A stretch of DNA of 64,000 nucleotides from an uncultured Saprospiraceae bacterium (GTDB taxonomy: Bacteria; Bacteroidota; Bacteroidia; Chitinophagales; Saprospiraceae): positions 10,775 to 74,774 of the forward strand of contig CAYTZS010000002.1 of NCBI GenBank assembly GCA_964442355.1, in the 5' to 3' direction. Made by a program: the position numbers and the translations under genes. Of the stretch, positions 4,590-31,590 are shown one piece after another; within the stretch, counting starts at the first letter, position 1; each line of letters starts with the position of its first letter. The notes beneath the pieces are model-generated. The model had not been told where the DNA came from and made no database searches. It was given only the letters and a program-made list of their open reading frames with translations.

Positions 4590-4768
4590 GCGGGCTTTTT
4601 TCACGAAATTTGACGTTAAATGCTTTTGGTTGTTGATTTTAGGATAAAATTTATGATGTTTTCGTTGTCACAGTTTTTGAAAAAGTAGCCCAAAAACGGG
4701 GTGTTGCGGCGGGCATATTTGTGTCATCAATCGAACTGGTGAACACTCAAACAAAAAAAGCAAAAACG

Positions 4769-11479: not shown

Positions 11480-12622
11480 TCAAACCGCCGGAACCGATGC
11501 GTCCACCTCCTTCGCCCAAGCGAGGATGCCCCCTTTCAGGTTGTACAGGTTCTCGAACCCGAACAGGTCTTCCAGTTCCCGGATGGCCTTGGCGCTGCGC
11601 ACGCCGCTGCGGCAGTGGACGACCACTTTTTTATCCTTCGCAATGCGGTGGGCGGCGGCGCTGACGGAGCCGAGCGGAATCAACTCGCCGTCGAGGTTGG
11701 CGGTAGCGAACTCGTGGGGTTCCCGCACGTCAATCAATTGGAAATCAGCGCCCTGCACTTGCCATTCGTAAAGTTCTTGCACCGTGATTTCTTTCACGGG
11801 CCGCAGTTCACCGGGCGATTCGAGGCCGCAGAACTGCTCGTAGTTGATGAGTTCCGTGATTTTGGTGTCTGGGCTTTTCTGCACTTTCAGGATGCGGGTC
11901 GTGAAGCTCGCTGCATCGAAAAGGAAAAGCCGCCCGGCGAGGGGTTCGCCCACGCCCGTCAGCACCTTGATGACCTCGCTGGCCTGCATGGAGCCGATGA
12001 TGCCGGGCAATACGCCGAGCACGCCGCCTTCGGCGCAATTGGGCACGAGGCCCGGAGGGGGCGGTTCGGGGAACATGTCCCGGTAGTTCGGGCCACGCTC
12101 GCCATCGGCCAGCGGGTAGTTGAACACGGACACCTGCCCCTCGAACTGAAAGATGGAGGCATAGACGTTCACCTTCCCGGCCAGCACACAGGCGTCGTTG
12201 ACGAGGTAGCGGGTGGGGAAGTTGTCGGTGCCGTCGGCCACCACGTCGTAGTCCTTGACGAGTTCCAGCGCATTTTCACGGGTGAAACGGGTCTTGTACA
12301 CCACGATGTCGAGGTGCGGGTTCAGCGCCAGCAGGCGTTCCCGTGCGGTTTCGGCTTTGGACTTCCCAATGTCGTCGGTGGTGAAAAGCACCTGGCGTTG
12401 GAGGTTGCTGTCGTCCACGGTATCGAAGTCCACGATGCCGATATGGCCGACCCCGGCGGCGGCCAAGTAGAGCAGCACTGGGCTGCCGAGGCCCCCGCTG
12501 CCGATGACGAGCACCCGGCCTGCCTTTAGTTTTTCTTGTCCCTGCAAGCCGAATTCCGGTATGGCGATGTGCCGTGCGTATCGGGCGATTTCAGCGGGAG
12601 ACAAACTGTTGTTATTTGCCAT
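11480..12622 (-). CDS. moeZ: MoeB/ThiF-type E1-like adenylyltransferase fused to a C-terminal rhodanese domain (MoeZ-like sulfurtransferase)
   Basis: The track ORF was trimmed to the ATG at 12622 (MANNNSLSPAEIARYARHIAIPEFG). The upstream part of the track ORF merely translates a hairpin. It has the GSGGLGSP nucleotide loop and a C-terminal rhodanese active-site loop, HCRSGVRS. Confidence 0.85.
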   Translation of the reverse strand: MANNNSLSPAEIARYARHIAIPEFGLQGQEKLKAGRVLVIGSGGLGSPVLLYLAAAGVGHIGIVDFDTVDDSNLQRQVLFTTDDIGKSKAETARERLLALNPHLDIVVYKTRFTRENALELVKDYDVVADGTDNFPTRYLVNDACVLAGKVNVYASIFQFEGQVSVFNYPLADGERGPNYRDMFPEPPPPGLVPNCAEGGVLGVLPGIIGSMQASEVIKVLTGVGEPLAGRLFLFDAASFTTRILKVQKSPDTKITELINYEQFCGLESPGELRPVKEITVQELYEWQVQGADFQLIDVREPHEFATANLDGELIPLGSVSAAAHRIAKDKKVVVHCRSGVRSAKAIRELEDLFGFENLYNLKGGILAWAKEVDASVPAV

Positions 12623-12634
12623 GATGGATAAAAT

Positions 12635-12710
12635 TTGTGTTTGGGTGTTTGAGTGTTTATGTGTTTGCGGTGCCTCGTAAACACTCAAACACATAAATAC
12701 CCAAACACAA
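12635..12710. repeat. word-built hairpin (GTTTGGGT/GTTTGAGT/GTTTATGT words and their complements)
   Basis: TTGTGTTTGGGTGTTTGAGTGTTTATGTGTTT ... AAACACTCAAACACATAAATACCCAAACACAA. It fills the 89-nt cysO-moeZ gap. Confidence 0.75.
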
Positions 12711-12711
12711 T

Positions 12712-12990
12712 TTAACGGCTGCCGCCAGCGATGGCAGGCACGATGCTAATCACTGCATTGGGTGCAACGGCGGTCGCCCCTTTTTCCAGTGAATTGATGT
12801 CCTCTTCGCCGAGATAGACCCGGATGAAAGAGCGGATGTTGCGGTTGTCGTCGAGCAAGTGGCGCTCCAAGCCCGTGTGGGTTTGGGTCAGTTGCTCGAT
12901 GGCTTCCTGCACGGTGCTGCCCGTCGTTTCGAACGTACTGCTGTTGTCGGTAAATTTACGCAAAGGCGTTGGGATGATAATTTTTGCCAT
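12712..12990 (-). CDS. cysO: ThiS/MoaD-family ubiquitin-like sulfur-carrier protein with a C-terminal GG followed by Ser-Arg
   Basis: 92 aa, ending ...IVPAIAGGSR*. The size and beta-grasp pattern fit, and it sits between a JAMM protease gene and an E1-like gene. Confidence 0.8.
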   Translation of the reverse strand: MAKIIIPTPLRKFTDNSSTFETTGSTVQEAIEQLTQTHTGLERHLLDDNRNIRSFIRVYLGEEDINSLEKGATAVAPNAVISIVPAIAGGSR

Positions 12991-13000
12991 TTTTTTATGA

Positions 13001-13095
13001 AGGTTTAGAGAGTTTAGGGAGGTTTAGGAGGTTTAATCGGGCAGTCGGCACAAGCCAACTAAACCTTCTAAACCTCTTTAAACCTTCTAAACCTC
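13001..13095. repeat. GGTTTAGRRGG-word hairpin, copy 1 of 4
   Basis: The left arm is AGGTTTAGAGAGTTTAGGGAGGTTTAGGAGGTTTAA and the right arm is TAAACCTTCTAAACCTCTTTAAACCTTCTAAACCTC. The right arm overlaps the last codons and stop of the JAMM gene. Confidence 0.8.
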
Positions 13096-13530
13096 AATAT
13101 TTACATTTACAGTTTCTTCCAAAAACACCCGCTCCTCGTCCTTCAGCCGCCAGCTTTTCAGGTCGGCCACTTCGCCGTTCATCACGGAAACGATGACGTA
13201 GGAGAAGTAGGGCATTGCCACTGCCAAGTCATGCTCGGAGGCAATGGCCGGGTGGTTCGGGTGAGAGTGATAGACGCCGAGGAGCGTCGTATCATTTTGC
13301 AGCGCAAACTGCTCAGCCCGCAGGTAATCCAGTGGCGAAATCTCGAACCGGCGGCGCTGGTCGCCATCCTTGCTGTTGGTCACGGGCACGGCGAGGGTGA
13401 TTTGCCTGCCGTCTTCCTCCGACTCGTGGCCGTAGAGGAAGCCGCAGCATTCGTTCGGAAAGGCGGCGATGCCATCGGCGTTGATGGTTTCGACGGCTTC
13501 GGCGTTGATAGTTATTTTATGATGACTCAT
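13087..13530 (-). CDS. mec: JAMM/MPN+ (Mov34) metalloprotease, Mec+-like
   Basis: 147 aa. It has the JAMM motif HSHPNHPAIASEHD (HxHx7Sx2D) plus an upstream Glu (FPNECCGF). Confidence 0.85.
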   Translation of the reverse strand: MSHHKITINAEAVETINADGIAAFPNECCGFLYGHESEEDGRQITLAVPVTNSKDGDQRRRFEISPLDYLRAEQFALQNDTTLLGVYHSHPNHPAIASEHDLAVAMPYFSYVIVSVMNGEVADLKSWRLKDEERVFLEETVNVNIEV

Positions 13531-13551
13531 TTTGATATTAGAATTGATAGG

Positions 13552-13628
13552 ACACAGATGGAACTGATTTGACTGATTTCCACAGATTTTTTGGACAAAA
13601 TCAGTTCAATCTGTCAAATCTGTGTTCT
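13552..13628. repeat. word-built hairpin (CACAGAT / CTGATTT words)
   Basis: ACACAGATGGAACTGATTTGACTGATTTCCACAGATT ... AAAATCAGTTCAATCTGTCAAATCTGTGT. It fills most of the 106-nt cysM-mec gap. Confidence 0.75.
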
Positions 13629-13636
13629 ATCCTCTT

Positions 13637-14575
13637 TCAACTAAAAATCCTTTCCATCACCTCTGCATACTTCTCCGCATTGTCGGCGAAGGTGGTGACG
13701 ATGACGCCTTGTTCTATTTGCTCCGCCACCTTGATGGCACCGAGCAGGTTGGCTGCAGCTGATGGGCTAACGAGTAACCCCTCTTCCCTTGCCAGTGACC
13801 TCACCATGTCGTAAGTGTCAAGTGTGTCCACTTCGAGGAAGCGGTCTGCCAGTGAGCCGTCGTAGATTTTTGGGACGATGGCGGTCTCCAAGTGCTTCCA
13901 ACCTTCAAGGCCGTGCATGGGGTTGTCGGGTTGCAAACCGATCAATTCAATGTCGGGGTTGAATTTTCGGAGGCCCCGACCTGTGCCAGTGAATGTGCCG
14001 GTCGTGCCCAAGCCTGCCACGAAATGCGTGATTTTGCCACAGGTCTGCTGCCAGATTTCTGGGGCCGTGGTTTCGTAGTGCGCCCGCCAGTTGTGGTCGT
14101 TGGCGTACTGGTCGGCGTAAAAGAATTGGTCAGGTTGCTCTCGGTAAAGGCGCTTGGCTTCGAGTTGTGCGCCGTCTGTGCCATCAAAGCGTGAAGTGAA
14201 GACGATGTTCACGCCAAGCGATTGCAGAATTCGCTTACGTTCGGTGCTGGCATTTTCGGGGAGGCAGAGCGTCACTGGAATTTTCAGCGCTGCGCAAATG
14301 GCGGCATAAGCGATGCCCGTGTTGCCGCTAGTGGCGTCAAGCAGGTGTCTGCCTTGGCCGAGGTGCCCGTCCCGCAGGGCATTTTTGATGATGTTGAAAG
14401 CTGGGCGACTTTTCACGCTCCCGCCGAGTTGCTGCCACTCCAGCTTTGCGAAGATGCGGACACCGGGCTTTCGGAAGGCGTTGCGTATTTCATAAAGCGG
14501 CGTCTTTCCGACCAGTTGGCCGACTTGCAGCGTCTTTTCGACAGCAGAAACCGATGGATAAAGCAGGGTTGTCAT
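13637..14575 (-). CDS. cysM: PLP-dependent cysteine synthase (CysM/CysK family)
   Basis: 312 aa. It carries the Lys-containing block GGSVKSRPA, the SGNTG loop and the GTTGT loop, which are characteristic of the fold-type II cysteine synthase family. Confidence 0.85.
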   Translation of the reverse strand: MTTLLYPSVSAVEKTLQVGQLVGKTPLYEIRNAFRKPGVRIFAKLEWQQLGGSVKSRPAFNIIKNALRDGHLGQGRHLLDATSGNTGIAYAAICAALKIPVTLCLPENASTERKRILQSLGVNIVFTSRFDGTDGAQLEAKRLYREQPDQFFYADQYANDHNWRAHYETTAPEIWQQTCGKITHFVAGLGTTGTFTGTGRGLRKFNPDIELIGLQPDNPMHGLEGWKHLETAIVPKIYDGSLADRFLEVDTLDTYDMVRSLAREEGLLVSPSAAANLLGAIKVAEQIEQGVIVTTFADNAEKYAEVMERIFS

Positions 14576-14580
14576 CTTTT

Positions 14581-14675
14581 TAGGTTTAGGAGGTTAAGTG
14601 GGTTTAGGAGGGTTAGGAGGTTTAGGTTGTGCATAGCGATAAACCTCCTAAACCCACTAAACTTCCTAAACCTCT
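14581..14675. repeat. GGTTTAGRRGG-word hairpin, copy 2 of 4
   Basis: TAGGTTTAGGAGGTTAAGTGGGTTTAGGAGGGTTAGGAGGTTTAGG ... AAACCTCCTAAACCCACTAAACTTCCTAAACCTC. It lies in the 5' leader of cysM. Confidence 0.8.
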
Positions 14676-14683
14676 GCAATTGG

Positions 14684-14727
14684 CCAAAAACAAAAGAGCC
14701 TTCCCGATGCACGGAAAGGCTCTTTTA
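14684..14727 (-). terminator. strong intrinsic terminator in the leader of the cys operon
   Basis: The minus strand reads AAAAGAGCCTTTCCG-TGCAT-CGGGAAGGCTCTTTT followed by GTTTTTGG. That is 15 consecutive pairs, one of them G-U. It lies between a candidate promoter (14849) and the cysM ATG (14575). Confidence 0.7.
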
Positions 14728-14805
14728 CAGATTACAGAATATTGCACATCTCAAAGCAATGCTCCGCCGCCCTTCCTTGCCGGAATGGTACAGCAACATC
14801 AACAT
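14725..14805 (-). CDS. candidate 26-codon leader ORF (MLMLLYHSGKEGRRSIALRCAIFCNL)
   Basis: ATG at 14805. The TAA stop (14727..14725) overlaps the first bases of the terminator's 5' arm. Two Cys codons lie 6 and 2 codons before the stop. This call is speculative. Confidence 0.3.
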   Translation of the reverse strand: MLMLLYHSGKEGRRSIALRCAIFCNL

Positions 14806-14848
14806 GCGGTGAAATGGATTTGAGTCATTCTTGAAATTGTGAACTTGA

Positions 14849-14856
14849 CAAAAATA
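14849..14856 (-). promoter_or_regulatory. candidate -7 box (TATTTTTG) with TTTG 21 nt upstream
   Basis: The minus strand reads ...GCTTTTGAACTTTTTAAAAGCAAACTTGTATTTTTGTCAAG..., about 45 nt upstream of the leader ORF ATG. Confidence 0.35.
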
Positions 14857-15336
14857 CAAGTTTGCTTTTAAAAAGTTCAAAAGCTGTGCCAAGCGTGTTT
14901 GAGTACGTGTAGGCAAAAAAATAGTAGCAGCTAGAGGTGAGGTTTCACAAGTTTTTGTTTGTCAACGTTTTATAAATAAAAACACCCGGCTAGGTCATTA
15001 TTGATACGTCACGCATTTTTATCCTACTAATAAATATTTATCGAAATTAGTATTAAAAAAATTGCACGAGACTATACAAGAAAACAGAAAATACATACCT
15101 TGCACACGATTTCAGACACACACCTTAGACACTCGTAAAATTTGACATCCCGGGGACTTTGAAAAGTCAACACTCACCAGAAGTATTTTCTGAGATTTCT
15201 ACACTACGAATTCACTATTGAACAAAAGCGGGGAAAGACCCACCCTGCACCAAAGATTTTCCCATTTTCCGATTTACAAAGCCCGTAAAAAGGGCAGCTC
15301 AAGGCTTACAATTCGTTTGTGCCTGCATCCCAACCG

Positions 15337-15393
15337 ATGAAGAAAAAGCTTTGCCGAGTTACCCGCTGCAAATATGGTAATGGGCTATGCTGA
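15337..15393 (+). CDS. candidate 18-codon micro-ORF (MKKKLCRVTRCKYGNGLC)
   Basis: ATG to TGA, with three Cys. It ends 35 nt upstream of a plus-strand hairpin and U-tract. There is no other support. Confidence 0.15.
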   Translation: MKKKLCRVTRCKYGNGLC

Positions 15394-15428
15394 AGATGCA
15401 ATTTGTAATCCCTTGAGAACACGCAAGA

Positions 15429-15466
15429 CCTCTTTCCGGGTTTCCGGGAAGGGGTTCTGCGTTTTT
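15429..15466 (+). terminator. intrinsic terminator-like hairpin in the ORF-free region
   Basis: CCTCTTTCCGG-GTTT-CCGGGAAGGGG forms 11 pairs, 3 of them G-U, followed by TTCTGCGTTTTT. Confidence 0.45.
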
Positions 15467-16038
15467 AGGGGGTAAGGGTCTTTGAAGAAATGAAATTTTG
15501 GGTGGTGTAAGTTCTTGTTGGTCAGTGGTTTAGGCTAAGTGGTTTTGGTGAGGCTGCCAGCTCGATTTTGCCCCAAATCATCAATTTTGAAATTATTTTT
15601 TTACAAATACTTTGCGCTATCGGCAAGAGCAGCTACTTTTGGCTCGATTTTTTTAGCGTATTATTAAAATTCCTGTGAACATGAAAGGACTGTTATTCAA
15701 CGTAAGAGCGTGATGAGAAGCCGGAAGGACATCTAACCAATTTGCAACACCGTTTTTTAGTAAGCAAACTATCCTGACAACCGATTTTTAGTAAAAAGAC
15801 ATTTCACAAACCAATTGTAGTCCGAGCTTCTCATCCATTTTTTTCTTCAGTACCCTCCATTGTTCACTTCAGGGCTTTTTTGTAATCGGTGGTGTTGCTT
15901 GCAATCTTGAAACTCATCTGATTTTGGCTGCACTTGTTGTTGCAGTGTAAAGCATGCTTTGTCGTCCCGCAATGCAAGCTTCGCAAATCTTTTCTTTTCG
16001 CCCCAACGAACAAAAGATGTAATCGGTTTTTGGGATAG

Positions 16039-16072
16039 CCTCTCTCCACGTTTTGGAGGGGGGTTTTTTTTT
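16039..16072 (+). terminator. intrinsic terminator about 155 nt upstream of the TerC gene
   Basis: CCTCTCTCC-ACGTTTT-GGAGGGGGG forms 9 pairs, 2 of them G-U, followed by nine T residues. Confidence 0.55.
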
Positions 16073-16226
16073 GCCCTGAATTTTGGTGCTCCATCATGCC
16101 CGTCCCTAGGTTTGGTCGAAAAGCAGTGAAGCCCCTCGCCTTGCCATCAGCCAACGGCTCCCAGTTTTTTGTTTACTTTGCGGGGCTTTTCGAAAATGGC
16201 CTTTTTCTTAACCAAAAAAAGTTTTA

Positions 16227-17198
16227 ATGTACGTTTGGATTGGCTTCCTAGCACTAATTACCATCTTTTTGGCGCTCGATTTGGGCGTTTTCAACAGAGA
16301 CCCCCACAAGATTAACACCAAAGAGGCCCTGCGGTGGACGGCACTTTGGAGCACTGTTTCCGTGTTTTTCAGCGTATTTATCTATTTCGCTTACGAGCGT
16401 CATTGGTTTGGCATCGGCCAGACCATCGGCCTCGATTCCAATGGCTGGGACGCTGCCCTTACCTATCTTACTGGCTATATCGTCGAGCTTTCACTGAGCT
16501 TGGACAACGTCTTTGTCATCGCCGTCATTTTTGGATACTTCCACATCCCACAAAAATACCAGCACCGAGTGCTGTTCTGGGGCATCATCGGGGCAGTCCT
16601 GTTTCGGGGGCTGATGATTGGTGCAGGTGCTATCCTCGTTGAGAAATTCGACTGGATTATGTACTTCTTTGGGGCCATCTTACTCTACACGGCCTGGAAA
16701 ATGCTCAAGACTGGCGGTGAAGAAATACATCCAGAAAACAACCCCGTGGTGTTGCAGCTTCGCAAAATTTTGCCTGTTACGAAGAACATTCGCCGGGAGC
16801 ATTTTTTTGTGAAATGGAAGGGCAAGACCATTGCCATGACACCCCTCTTCGTGGCGCTAGTAGTGGTAGAAACCACGGATATCATGTTTGCCTTCGACAG
16901 TATCCCGGCCATTTTCTCCATCACCAAAGACCCCTTCATCGTCTTCACTTCCAATATTTTCGCCATACTTGGCCTGCGCTCGCTGTACTTCGTGCTGGCC
17001 TCCATGCTTGATAAGTTCCAGTACGTGAAATACAGCCTCGTTATCATCCTGACGTTTGTGGGACTTAAGATGCTGGTACTGCATCCGCTCCACATCAAAC
17101 TGCCGGAATGGGCATCTCTCGGGTTTATCGTACTGGTGCTTGGCGGTGGCATATTGTACTCGATGTGGAAAGGCAAAAAAGAGGAAGTTGGCAGCTAG
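16227..17198 (+). CDS. TerC-family integral membrane protein
   Basis: 323 aa and multi-pass. The blocks YLTGYIVELSLSLDNVFVI and FAFDSIPAIF are typical of TerC/Alx/YkoY proteins. Confidence 0.85.
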   Translation: MYVWIGFLALITIFLALDLGVFNRDPHKINTKEALRWTALWSTVSVFFSVFIYFAYERHWFGIGQTIGLDSNGWDAALTYLTGYIVELSLSLDNVFVIAVIFGYFHIPQKYQHRVLFWGIIGAVLFRGLMIGAGAILVEKFDWIMYFFGAILLYTAWKMLKTGGEEIHPENNPVVLQLRKILPVTKNIRREHFFVKWKGKTIAMTPLFVALVVVETTDIMFAFDSIPAIFSITKDPFIVFTSNIFAILGLRSLYFVLASMLDKFQYVKYSLVIILTFVGLKMLVLHPLHIKLPEWASLGFIVLVLGGGILYSMWKGKKEEVGS

Positions 17199-20590: not shown

Positions 20591-22732
20591 CTATCTGTAC
20601 GCTTTAAGTGCCTTCTTGTCTGCCTCCGTTGCCAAGCGAATCTGCACGGCAGCTCCACCGCCAGCAGCTAACTGGATTTTCAGCACCGTTTCCTTTTTCA
20701 CCAAGTACGAATTGATTTGATAGGCCATCGGGTTTTTGTCCCAATGCGCATCTGTCGCATCGGCATAGACCGTCGCAACGTAGCTTGTGTTTTTGTCCAA
20801 AAAATCGAGCGGCAGCGTGGCCTTGCGGGCATTTTCATCGGTGATGGCTCCGATGAACCACTCGTTTTTGCCTTTGGCCCTGCGGGCAATGGAGAGATAG
20901 TCACCAGGCTCGGCTTCAAGGTAGCGGCTGTCGTCCCAGTCCACCGCCACGTCCTTGATGAACTGGAAGGCATCGAGGTGTTGCTCGTAGATTTCGGGCA
21001 GGTCAGCTGCCATTTGCAGGGGGCTGTAAATCGTGACGTAAAGCGCCAATTGCTTCGCAAGGGTCGTGTGTACCTGCTCCTTTTTATTCGGATCAAAGTA
21101 GCTCATTTTGGTTTGAAAAATACCAGGTGTGTAGTCAATCGGCCCGCCCATCGAGCGGGTGAATGGAAGGATAGTCTCGTGCTCTGGTGGATTGCCCACG
21201 CTCCAAGCGTTAAATTCGTTGCCACGGGTTGCCTCGCAGGCCAGCCAGTTGGGGTAGGTGCGGTGCAGGCCAGTTGGCCGCACGGGTTCGTGGGCGTCGA
21301 GCATGATTTGGCGCTCGGCGGTCTTGGCAGCCACCCGGTTGAAGTGGTTCACCATCCATTGCCCGTCGTGGTGCTCGCCACGAGGGATTATCCTACCGAC
21401 ATAGCCCGTCTTCACGGCATCGTAGCCGTATTTTTTCATAAAATCATACGACTTGTCCATCCAGCGCTCATAGTTGGTGACCGAGCCGGAAGTCTCGTGG
21501 TGCATGATGATTTTCACGCCTTTTTGCTTGGCGTAAGCCGAAAGTTCCGCCACATTGAAGTCGGGGTAGGGCGTTACGAAGTCGAAAACGTCCTCTTTCC
21601 ACTTCCCAAACCAGTCTTCCCAGCCCGTGTTCCAGCCCTCGACAAGCACACCGTCGAAGCCGTGCTTGGCTGCAAAATCAATGTACGTTTTTACCCGCTT
21701 GGTAGTGGCTCCGTGCCTGCCTGATGGTTCGACCGTGGCGAGGTCCCAAGTGGATGCGCTCTGCGTACCAGCATAGTCCCAAGTGGACTTCCCGACGTGC
21801 ATTTCCCACCAAACCCCGACGTACTTGGTCGGCTTTATCCACGACGTTTCGGCGATTTTGGAAGGCTCGTTGAGGTTCAATATTAAGCGGGAAGCGAGGA
21901 TGTCCGTCGCTTTGTCGCTGACGACGATGGTGCGCCACGGCGTATTGAAGGGTGCTTGCAGGTATGCCTTGTTGCCCACAGCGTCGGGCACGAGGTGCGA
22001 GGTCAGTTTGAACGTGGGTGTATCAACTTGGAGGTTCATGGCCGGGTAGTTCACCAGCGCCGCCTCATGGATGTTGAGGTAGAGGCCGTCCGTGGTTTTC
22101 ATCATCAGCGGCGTCTGCACAAAGTTGACGCCGATGGGTGTGCGGGCGTGAATCTCGTTAGCCACGCCGCCCGCCAAGCCGTTTACCTCGCTGAGTTTGG
22201 TAGTGTTGTACTGGAACTCATTGCTGTCGTAGTCGCCGGGAATCCAGAACGCTTGGTGGTCGCCCGTGAGGTCGAACTCGGTTTTTTCGTCCGAAACGAT
22301 GAAGTGGTTCAGCCCCGGCTGTGCCGGAAACTCGTAGCGGAAGCCCAGCCCATCGTTGAAGAGGCGGAAGCGGATGACGAACCGACGGTCATCCGCAGCG
22401 GATTGGCGCAGCGTAACGGCCAGTTCCCGGTAGTGGTTTCGAATCGTTTTGGTCTCGCCCCAGACGGGTGTCCAAGTTTCGTCAAAAACCGAAGAGTCCA
22501 CCTGCACGACCGCAAAGCCTTGGCTGAAGGACGGCGCATCTTTTATGATTACAGCCATGCGGCTGGGTTGAACCACTTCTTTTTTGCCAAAATACAGGCG
22601 GTAAGTTGGCTCGCCAGAAGCATTCAGGGCAAAAGTGAGCGCCAGTTTTCCGTTGGGAGAATGGATGGTTTGGGCAAAAATTTGCAGTGCGCAAAGCAAA
22701 AAAACGAGTGTAGAGGCAAGTTTATTCATCAT
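20591..22732 (-). CDS. glycoside hydrolase family 97 (alpha-glucosidase/alpha-galactosidase type)
   Basis: 713 aa with a signal peptide. The N-terminal SPNGKLALTF...GEPTYRLYFGKK, the IMHHETSG block and the overall length are typical of SusB-like GH97 enzymes. Confidence 0.85.
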   Translation of the reverse strand: MMNKLASTLVFLLCALQIFAQTIHSPNGKLALTFALNASGEPTYRLYFGKKEVVQPSRMAVIIKDAPSFSQGFAVVQVDSSVFDETWTPVWGETKTIRNHYRELAVTLRQSAADDRRFVIRFRLFNDGLGFRYEFPAQPGLNHFIVSDEKTEFDLTGDHQAFWIPGDYDSNEFQYNTTKLSEVNGLAGGVANEIHARTPIGVNFVQTPLMMKTTDGLYLNIHEAALVNYPAMNLQVDTPTFKLTSHLVPDAVGNKAYLQAPFNTPWRTIVVSDKATDILASRLILNLNEPSKIAETSWIKPTKYVGVWWEMHVGKSTWDYAGTQSASTWDLATVEPSGRHGATTKRVKTYIDFAAKHGFDGVLVEGWNTGWEDWFGKWKEDVFDFVTPYPDFNVAELSAYAKQKGVKIIMHHETSGSVTNYERWMDKSYDFMKKYGYDAVKTGYVGRIIPRGEHHDGQWMVNHFNRVAAKTAERQIMLDAHEPVRPTGLHRTYPNWLACEATRGNEFNAWSVGNPPEHETILPFTRSMGGPIDYTPGIFQTKMSYFDPNKKEQVHTTLAKQLALYVTIYSPLQMAADLPEIYEQHLDAFQFIKDVAVDWDDSRYLEAEPGDYLSIARRAKGKNEWFIGAITDENARKATLPLDFLDKNTSYVATVYADATDAHWDKNPMAYQINSYLVKKETVLKIQLAAGGGAAVQIRLATEADKKALKAYR

Positions 22733-31490: not shown

Positions 31491-31578
31491 GGAGGGTTTA
31501 GAGGGTTTAGGAAGTTTAGGAGGTTTAGTATTAAACCCATCTAAACCCTCTAAACCTCCTAAACCCTCTAAACCTTTT
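31491..31578. repeat. GGTTTAGRRGG-word hairpin, copy 4 of 4
   Basis: GGAGGGTTTAGAGGGTTTAGGAAGTTTAGGAGGTTTAGTA ... TTAAACCCATCTAAACCCTCTAAACCTCCTAAACCCTCTAAACC. Confidence 0.8.
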
Positions 31579-31590
31579 AAATTTAATGCC

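Follow-up and report, generated by a model that had tools for sequence, protein, structure and literature searches.

Classical attenuators, as summarized in the Yanofsky model, include the E. coli trpL and Salmonella hisL leaders and those of thr, leu, ilv and pheA. In case of cysteine, comparative genomics of Actinobacteria uncovered Cys-rich candidate leader peptides ahead of cys and cbs operons; no terminator was recognisable in these leaders, and Rho-dependence was proposed (Seliverstov et al. 2005, PMC1262725). Mycobacterial polycysteine sORFs (Ms5788A, "Cys ribulon") are leaderless and unmask a Shine-Dalgarno sequence without the involvement of a terminator, and uORF-mediated attenuation for cysteine was stated to be previously undescribed (Canestrari et al. 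2020, bioRxiv 10.1101/834739). Using a full-text literature search, no description of poly-Cys attenuators in Bacteroidota was found.

Here, we analyzed the leader of a cysteine operon in a 64-kb stretch of DNA (64,000 nucleotides, referred to as the window) from an uncultured Saprospiraceae bacterium. The operon, cysM-mec-cysO-moeZ (11480-14575), is located on the minus strand and encodes a cysM-like PLP enzyme (14575-13637), a JAB/Mec-like protease (13530-13087), a ThiS/CysO-like carrier (12990-12712) and a MoeZ-like ThiF+rhodanese protein (12694-11480). These genes are those of the protein-thiocarboxylate cysteine pathway known from Mycobacterium tuberculosis. The nearest CysM loci belong to Saprospiraceae MAGs and share 85-91% amino-acid identity. 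We consider it likely, with a probability of roughly 85%, that the leader of this operon is a classical ribosome-mediated transcription attenuator which senses Cys-tRNA. A conserved sORF with a Cys run, a terminator, and pairing potentials together with covariation were observed.

Leader layout and the poly-cysteine reading frame

Reading along the minus strand, a promoter-like pair is followed by roughly 150 nt of leader, a 15-bp hairpin with GTTTTTGG, a repeat hairpin of about 100 nt and finally the cysM start codon, an ATG confirmed at 14575. The promoter-like pair, TTTG-N21-TATTTTTG, is present at 14881-14849 as initially annotated and is of the Bacteroidota type (TTTG-N21-TAnnTTTG), with the -7-like box at 14849-14856 and its -33 partner TTTG at 14881-14878. 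Five such pairs occur in the window compared with 0.73 expected by chance. From the promoter-like boxes, transcription would be expected to start some 14-35 nt before the sORF ATG described below. The -7 box is not conserved in five of ten relatives (L012, L013, L078, L018 and L019) and is best treated as a candidate promoter element.

Overlapping the -33 TTTG, an invariant block (TGGCAC-AGCTT-TTGAAC, 14875-14891, minus strand) is the same in all 11 aligned leaders. In the form TGGCAY-N5-TTGAAC it occurs in 16 of 60 sequences, 51-67 nt ahead of the sORF ATG, and reaches distant loci (L023, L024, L032, L034, L044 and L067). The block is kept even where CysM is only about 65-75% identical. Its spacing resembles the -24/-12 arrangement of sigma-54 promoters, but with TTGA instead of TTGC, and genome-wide counts of TGGCAY-N5-TTGNN (TTGAA 27 versus TTGGC 24) showed no clear enrichment of TTGAA. 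Judged by its sequence, the block might serve either as a sigma-54-type promoter or as the site of a regulator.

The GGTTTAGGAGG hairpin had initially been counted among the leader elements. It is part of a palindromic repeat with GGTTTAGRRGG words (14581-14680, minus strand) that belongs to a dispersed family with 76 strand-matches spread over about 40 genomic places, further copies in the window being located at approximately 13001-13095 and 31495-31581. Four of the 11 aligned leaders carry it (the window, L012, L013 and L016) while it is missing from L011, L078, L017, L014, L015, L018 and L019. Its presence in L012 and absence from the almost identical L078 points to a recent gain or loss. 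On this comparison, the hairpin is an insertion between terminator and cysM ATG, lying outside the attenuator and separate from the regulator.

We aligned the leader with those of ten orthologous loci (L011-L019 and L078), which are 73-85% identical to the window over 209 nt (14891 to 14683). All ten contain an sORF in the +1 frame relative to the ORF of the initial annotation, which had missed it. This sORF has an ATG start and 4-5 consecutive Cys codons and encodes peptides of the form M..(I/T)ACCCC(C)T...; in the window its ATG is located at 14828. With a covariance model built from the 11 aligned leaders (the window and its ten relatives), about 50 more distant loci were found to carry the element ahead of cysM, often as a tandem pair. 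The only invariant block in the resulting alignment was UGUUGUUGUUGCUGUUGU which, read one base past the initially annotated frame, is a run of Cys codons. In all covariance-model matches, an ORF of 15-45 codons starts with ATG and includes 3-8 Cys codons in a row, as exemplified by the leader peptide of L078, MTKIHFTACCCCCTIPTRKGGGALR. ATG-started sORFs of 15-45 aa were found in 67 of 80 loci.

The frequency of such sORFs was determined for those 75 Bacteroidota/Balneolaceae cysM loci whose upstream sequence spans 500 nt or more, where we counted ORFs with an ATG start, a length of at most 45 aa and at least 4 consecutive Cys codons. Within 1 kb upstream of cysM, the sense strand held 79 poly-Cys sORFs in 60 of the 75 loci, which are related so that the counts are not independent; by the same definition the antisense strand yielded 0, the downstream stretch 0 and shuffled sequence 1. 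The runs comprise 4-8 consecutive Cys codons, and outside of them the leader peptides vary freely. Two of the loci (L083 and L086) carry records labelled Balneolaceae. In around 21 cysM loci, two poly-Cys attenuators follow one another, with an sORF and a terminator apiece (L020, L021, L025-L030, L033, L035, L037, L040-L042, L046, L048, L049, L052, L065 and L069), while there is one attenuator unit in the window's clade. A covariance-model census across the family returned matches in 23 of 100 other genera at E ≤ 1e-5, a number that is not a prevalence figure, the model being narrow and including a generic terminator.

Upstream of the leader, 1.3 kb without credible ORFs (14917-16226) separates it from a TerC/Alx-family gene on the plus strand (16227-17198). 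Two terminator-like hairpins are located on the plus strand of this stretch (15427-15456 and 16037-16065). Neither yybP-ykoY nor any other Rfam family matched within 14917-16226, although the TerC family model is named "R_switched_Alx".

Alternative RNA structures and competing explanations

Two structures are predicted in the leader. The first is a hairpin at 14750-14813 (minus strand), the putative anti-antiterminator, composed of three helices. P1 is formed by TTCACCGC (14813-14806) and GCTTTGAG (14757-14750), with UUCAYCGC/GCGRUGAA as its family form; P2 is a G-U-rich helix which contains the Cys codons; and P3 pairs CCATTCC (14788-14782) with GGAAGG, corresponding to CC-A-UUCC/GGAA-GG in the family. 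The 3' arm of P3 includes GGAAGGGC (14769-14776, minus strand). The second is an intrinsic terminator (14684-14726, minus strand), found as initially annotated, in which a 15-bp stem made of AAAAGAGCCTTTCCG (14726-14712) and CGGGAAGGCTCTTTT (14706-14692) encloses a 5-nt loop and is followed by GTTTTTGG. The MFE structure of the full-length window leader consists of the P1-P3 hairpin and the terminator.

Both structures are supported by covariation in the 11-leader alignment. In P1/P2a, compensatory changes occur in 3 pairs and 92% of cells are paired, while the terminator (helix 4) is 99.4% paired with compensatory changes in a further 3 pairs (A-U to G-C, A-U to C-G and G-C to A-U, in either direction). 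Overall, 94.7% of cells are paired, a value that drops to about 50% once the 3' partners are slid by 1-3 columns. The fold z-score of the leader is -6.9. A hairpin with a U-tract follows 83 of 87 sORFs, 39-82 nt past the last Cys codon and in many genomes, which argues against the possibility, raised at the outset, that the hairpin terminates an unrelated upstream transcript.

An 8-bp alternative helix had also been proposed initially. Indeed, GGAAGGGC is complementary to GCCUUUCC in the terminator core, and their pairing appears in the MFE structure of the nascent RNA; this helix corresponds to a 2:3 antiterminator. To model it across the family, nascent RNA ending with the terminator 5' arm was folded, and a stalled ribosome was mimicked by masking the sequence to the last Cys codon plus 12 nt. 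Pairing with upstream sequence involved a fraction of 0.31 of the terminator 5' arm in free RNA, 0.66 in masked RNA and 0.39 with a shuffled spacer; masked RNA gave the higher value in 61 of 83 comparisons with free RNA and in 79 of 83 with shuffled spacers. Spacers pair better with their own terminator arm than with those of others (-9.9 versus -7.6 kcal/mol), the own arm being preferred for 37 of 44 distinct terminator cores, and none of 5000 permutations attained the observed mean. In these folding models the antiterminator 2:3 would exclude the terminator and would be favoured with a ribosome positioned on the Cys codons. In case of the window copy, the nascent-RNA fold favours the antiterminator thermodynamically even without a ribosome and, therefore, the decision would have to be kinetic.

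Based on these pairings, the following mechanism can be proposed. Region 1, CCAUUCC (14788-14782), begins 3 nt past the Cys run and would pair with region 2, GGAAGGGC (14776-14769), within the larger P1-P3 hairpin. Region 3 would be GCCUUUCC in the terminator 5' arm and region 4 the terminator 3' arm. With ample Cys-tRNA, or without translation, the P1-P3 hairpin is expected to form, which would allow the 3:4 terminator (14726-14692) to fold so that transcription halts before cysM. When Cys-tRNA is scarce, a ribosome would stall on the Cys run and hide region 1, leaving region 2 to pair with GCCUUUCC in the 2:3 antiterminator, and RNA polymerase could then enter the operon. Ribosome stalling, kinetic coupling and the in vivo response to cysteine are what we infer here. 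At the family level, the leaders contain the sequence features of classical attenuators, namely the sORF, the Cys-codon run, the terminator and the 2:3 pairing.

Other explanations can be weighed against this mechanism. The one that survives best, albeit as an improbable one, is a riboswitch or a protein- or sRNA-dependent antiterminator for which P1-P3 would serve as aptamer or binding site while the Cys run would be incidental. A riboswitch was our first working idea for the P1-P3 hairpin: the hairpin is conserved with compensatory changes in P1, the UGUUGUUGCUGU tract doubles as a strand of the G-U-rich helix, and the fold z-score given above is in line with a structured RNA. We dropped the idea as the only invariant block turned out to be the UGU/UGC run in frame with an ATG. 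In distant loci, the hairpin sequences change while the tract always specifies Cys within an ORF that begins at an upstream ATG and soon reaches a stop, as reflected by the sense and antisense counts of 79 and 0, and no conserved unpaired "binding pocket" nucleotides were seen. Further, Rfam 15 at gathering score found no riboswitch, T-box or leader family in the 64-kb window. A more permissive scan of 13500-16400, at E ≤ 1 over the leader and E ≤ 5 for 14800-16400, gave only chance miRNA-like matches on the repeat hairpin, so that the riboswitch alternative of the initial annotation finds no Rfam family over the leader even at E ≤ 1. The same genome also encodes His and Trp leaders of the same design.

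Slightly less probable still is translational attenuation as in mycobacteria, where a stalled ribosome would expose the cysM start and the hairpin with its U-tract would not act as a terminator. There is precedent in Mycobacterium smegmatis, where polycysteine sORFs control translation (bioRxiv 10.1101/834739). However, in full-length folds the pairing partner of the Cys tract is GGCGGCGG in the leader hairpin, with terminator and U-tract beyond, and not the cysM start region. The near-constant presence of a stem and U-tract after the sORFs (a 15-bp, GC-rich stem in the window) likewise speaks against it, as does the distance of 270-920 nt between the upstream unit of tandem arrangements and the cysM start. 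In the window, the 100-nt repeat sits between terminator and cysM ATG and leaves the unit undisturbed.

Far less support remains for the initially annotated sensor, a 26-codon ORF (14725-14805, minus strand) whose two Cys codons, located 6 and 2 codons ahead of the stop, would place a waiting ribosome on the terminator 5' arm. The ATG at 14805 does open MLMLLYHSGKEGRRSIALRCAIFCNL, and the stop of this ORF overlaps the terminator stem. We dropped it as a sensor after translating it in the ten orthologous leaders, which keep neither its start, its length, its stop nor its Cys codons. There, ORFs of this type range from 9 to 63 aa with a shifting stop position; the ATG is a TTG in L011 and L016, the frame ends after 9 codons in L017, and Cys codons are found in 3 of 10 relatives, with both codons present in L013 alone. 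Distant loci retain only the Cys run in the +1 frame and not the 14805 ORF, making a sensing role for the latter highly improbable. The Cys run is in fact located upstream of the antiterminator strand, and not near or on the terminator arm where the stalled ribosome had been placed. Comparative evidence thus upholds three parts of the original Cys-tRNA proposal, namely the conditional terminator, the waiting ribosome and GGAAGGGC as antiterminator, while the sensing ORF was misidentified. Taken together, the sequence comparison strongly supports the idea of a terminator read by a ribosome as correct in principle, with the reading frame misassigned.

Equally improbable is a functional Cys-rich micropeptide, for example a metal- or redox-active one, placed before cysM by coincidence, as the peptides of close relatives are similar (..ACCCCCTIP.RKGGGALR) but their likeness tracks the RNA pairing segments GGAAGGGCGGCGGAGC, distant loci share the Cys run alone, and the sORF invariably occurs together with a terminator and with genes of Cys or sulfur assimilation.

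The in-run TGA of the window copy

The Cys-tRNA attenuator proposed above carries an irregularity in the window itself. As assembled, the leader ORF (14799-14828, minus strand) reads ATG ACT CAA ATC CAT TTC ACC GCA TGT TGA and encodes MTQIHFTAC followed by a stop. The Cys run is TGT TGA TGT TGC TGT, with the only Cys codon before the stop at 14804-14802 and the TGA at 14801-14799. The A at 14799 (minus strand) is a T in all ten close relatives, giving TGT. The rest of the ancestral frame (TGT TGC TGT ACC ... TGA, 14751-14798, minus strand) is open, encodes CCCTIPARKGGGALL and contains three further Cys codons in frame before the ancestral stop at 14753-14751. The window translation is therefore MTQIHFTAC, stop, CCCTIPARKGGGALL, stop, compared with MTQIQFIACCCCCTIRIRKGGGALR in the relatives. 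With one Cys codon before the TGA, the window's own copy lacks the tandem regulatory codons seen elsewhere in the family.

An exact-protein look-up of CysM identified one independent contig, from the Logan assembly of SRR13608702 (L103). Over 2709 nt it differs from the window at three positions, 14830, 14809 and 14799 (L103:16, 37 and 47), which cluster within 32 nt of the leader; the remaining 2,706 positions match. The change at 14830 is located 2 nt before the sORF ATG, the one at 14809 alters a codon as well as a P1 position, and the one at 14799 creates the in-run TGA. In the Logan contig the five-Cys run is intact, with TGT where the window has TGA. Since this near-identical independent contig has TGT, the TGA is explained either by genuine strain variation or by a mistake in the assembly. 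The three positions are within 50 nt of the end of the Logan locus, so they may stem from a variant bubble in the assembly graph.

The sensor of this assembly's copy is probably weakened, resulting in a super-attenuated or partly deregulated switch, because its second Cys codon is TGA and leaves one Cys codon before the stop. If real, the TGA allele is expected to make the switch less sensitive. For the his leader, nonsense mutations are a precedent for a lock towards termination, and the TGA allele would by analogy have the same effect. Alternatively, slow release at the UGA could mimic stalling, and folding does not discriminate between these two outcomes.

Further leader units and comparison with known attenuators

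Additional leader-peptide units were found elsewhere in the genome. On C7, two intact poly-Cys leader ORFs with 6 and 5 Cys codons are arranged in tandem (C7:3298-3375, encoding MTHFINHTSQFCSHMMCCCCCCMAR, and C7:3528-3659, plus strand; L099:299-660), each followed by a terminator. They precede genes for a NirA-like sulfite reductase, cobA, a siroheme-synthase N-terminal domain protein (sirC) and cysH. On C19, an intact poly-Cys leader ORF encoding MKLHLSNMACCCCPSALCGEALRCCCI (C19:17837-17920, minus strand; L100) is located with its terminator before a peroxiredoxin gene, an unexpected member of the presumed Cys regulon. Weaker covariance-model matches (C2:84451, C22, C129 and C72) were rejected as Cys leaders and represent plain terminators after genes.

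The His and Trp leaders mentioned above are a His leader peptide, MIQFNHSHHHHIF... (MIQFNHSHHHHIFSPATGEQTFF and a stop), with a terminator before hisG (C55:~22338-22471, plus strand) and a Trp leader that ends in NWWWQFKEPDFRG and a stop, with a terminator before trpE (C99:~4640-4744, minus strand). Both matched the Cys-leader covariance model through their terminators. With Cys, His and Trp leader units encoded in one genome, this organism makes general use of leader-peptide attenuation.

If the attenuator reading is correct, textbook ribosome-mediated transcription attenuation is extended to cysteine in a phylum whose sulfur-assimilation regulation is little studied, and the likely switch for the cysM-mec-cysO-moeZ (protein-thiocarboxylate) pathway is explained. 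An ATG-started sORF with at least 4 Cys codons that is followed by a terminator offers a simple and highly specific annotation signature for Cys regulons of uncultured Bacteroidota. In addition, the UGA/UGU allele pair in near-identical DNA represents a natural experiment on the number of regulatory codons needed. As a tentative extension, which we rate as well short of even odds, poly-Cys attenuators may constitute a phylum-wide and undescribed Bacteroidota/Balneolaceae "Cys ribulon", accompanied by natural regulatory alleles such as the in-run UGA. If so, this ribulon would coordinate the CysO-thiocarboxylate cysteine pathway, sulfite reduction and peroxiredoxin, often by means of tandem units, and the UGA allele may retune or disable the sensor, conceivably via read-through by near-cognate Cys-tRNA.

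In conclusion, the attenuation principle itself is not new. At the family level, the leader resembles classical attenuators in having a short leader ORF with tandem end-product codons and 1:2, 2:3 and 3:4 segments among which ribosome position would select the fold. Unlike the classical examples, it would sense Cys in a Bacteroidota host without Shine-Dalgarno reliance, it occurs as tandem units in many relatives, and the genes regulated are those of a CysO-thiocarboxylate system. With the actinobacterial leaders it shares short ORFs with Cys-codon runs ahead of cysteine genes; those leaders have no terminator, whereas terminator and antiterminator are explicit and covarying here. The mycobacterial system likewise features consecutive Cys codons in an unannotated upstream sORF and several Cys or sulfur loci per genome with an sORF of their own (here cysM, sulfite reductase-cysH and peroxiredoxin). 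In mycobacteria, however, the Cys tract pairs with the downstream Shine-Dalgarno region and translation is the target, while the tract described here is part of the leader hairpin and the sORF is followed by a strong terminator with a U-tract. Mycobacterial mRNAs are leaderless, whereas the promoter-like boxes found here are at least 14 nt upstream of the ATG. The element is therefore not a member of the mycobacterial polycysteine class, and its design is that of the classical attenuators, applied to cysteine.
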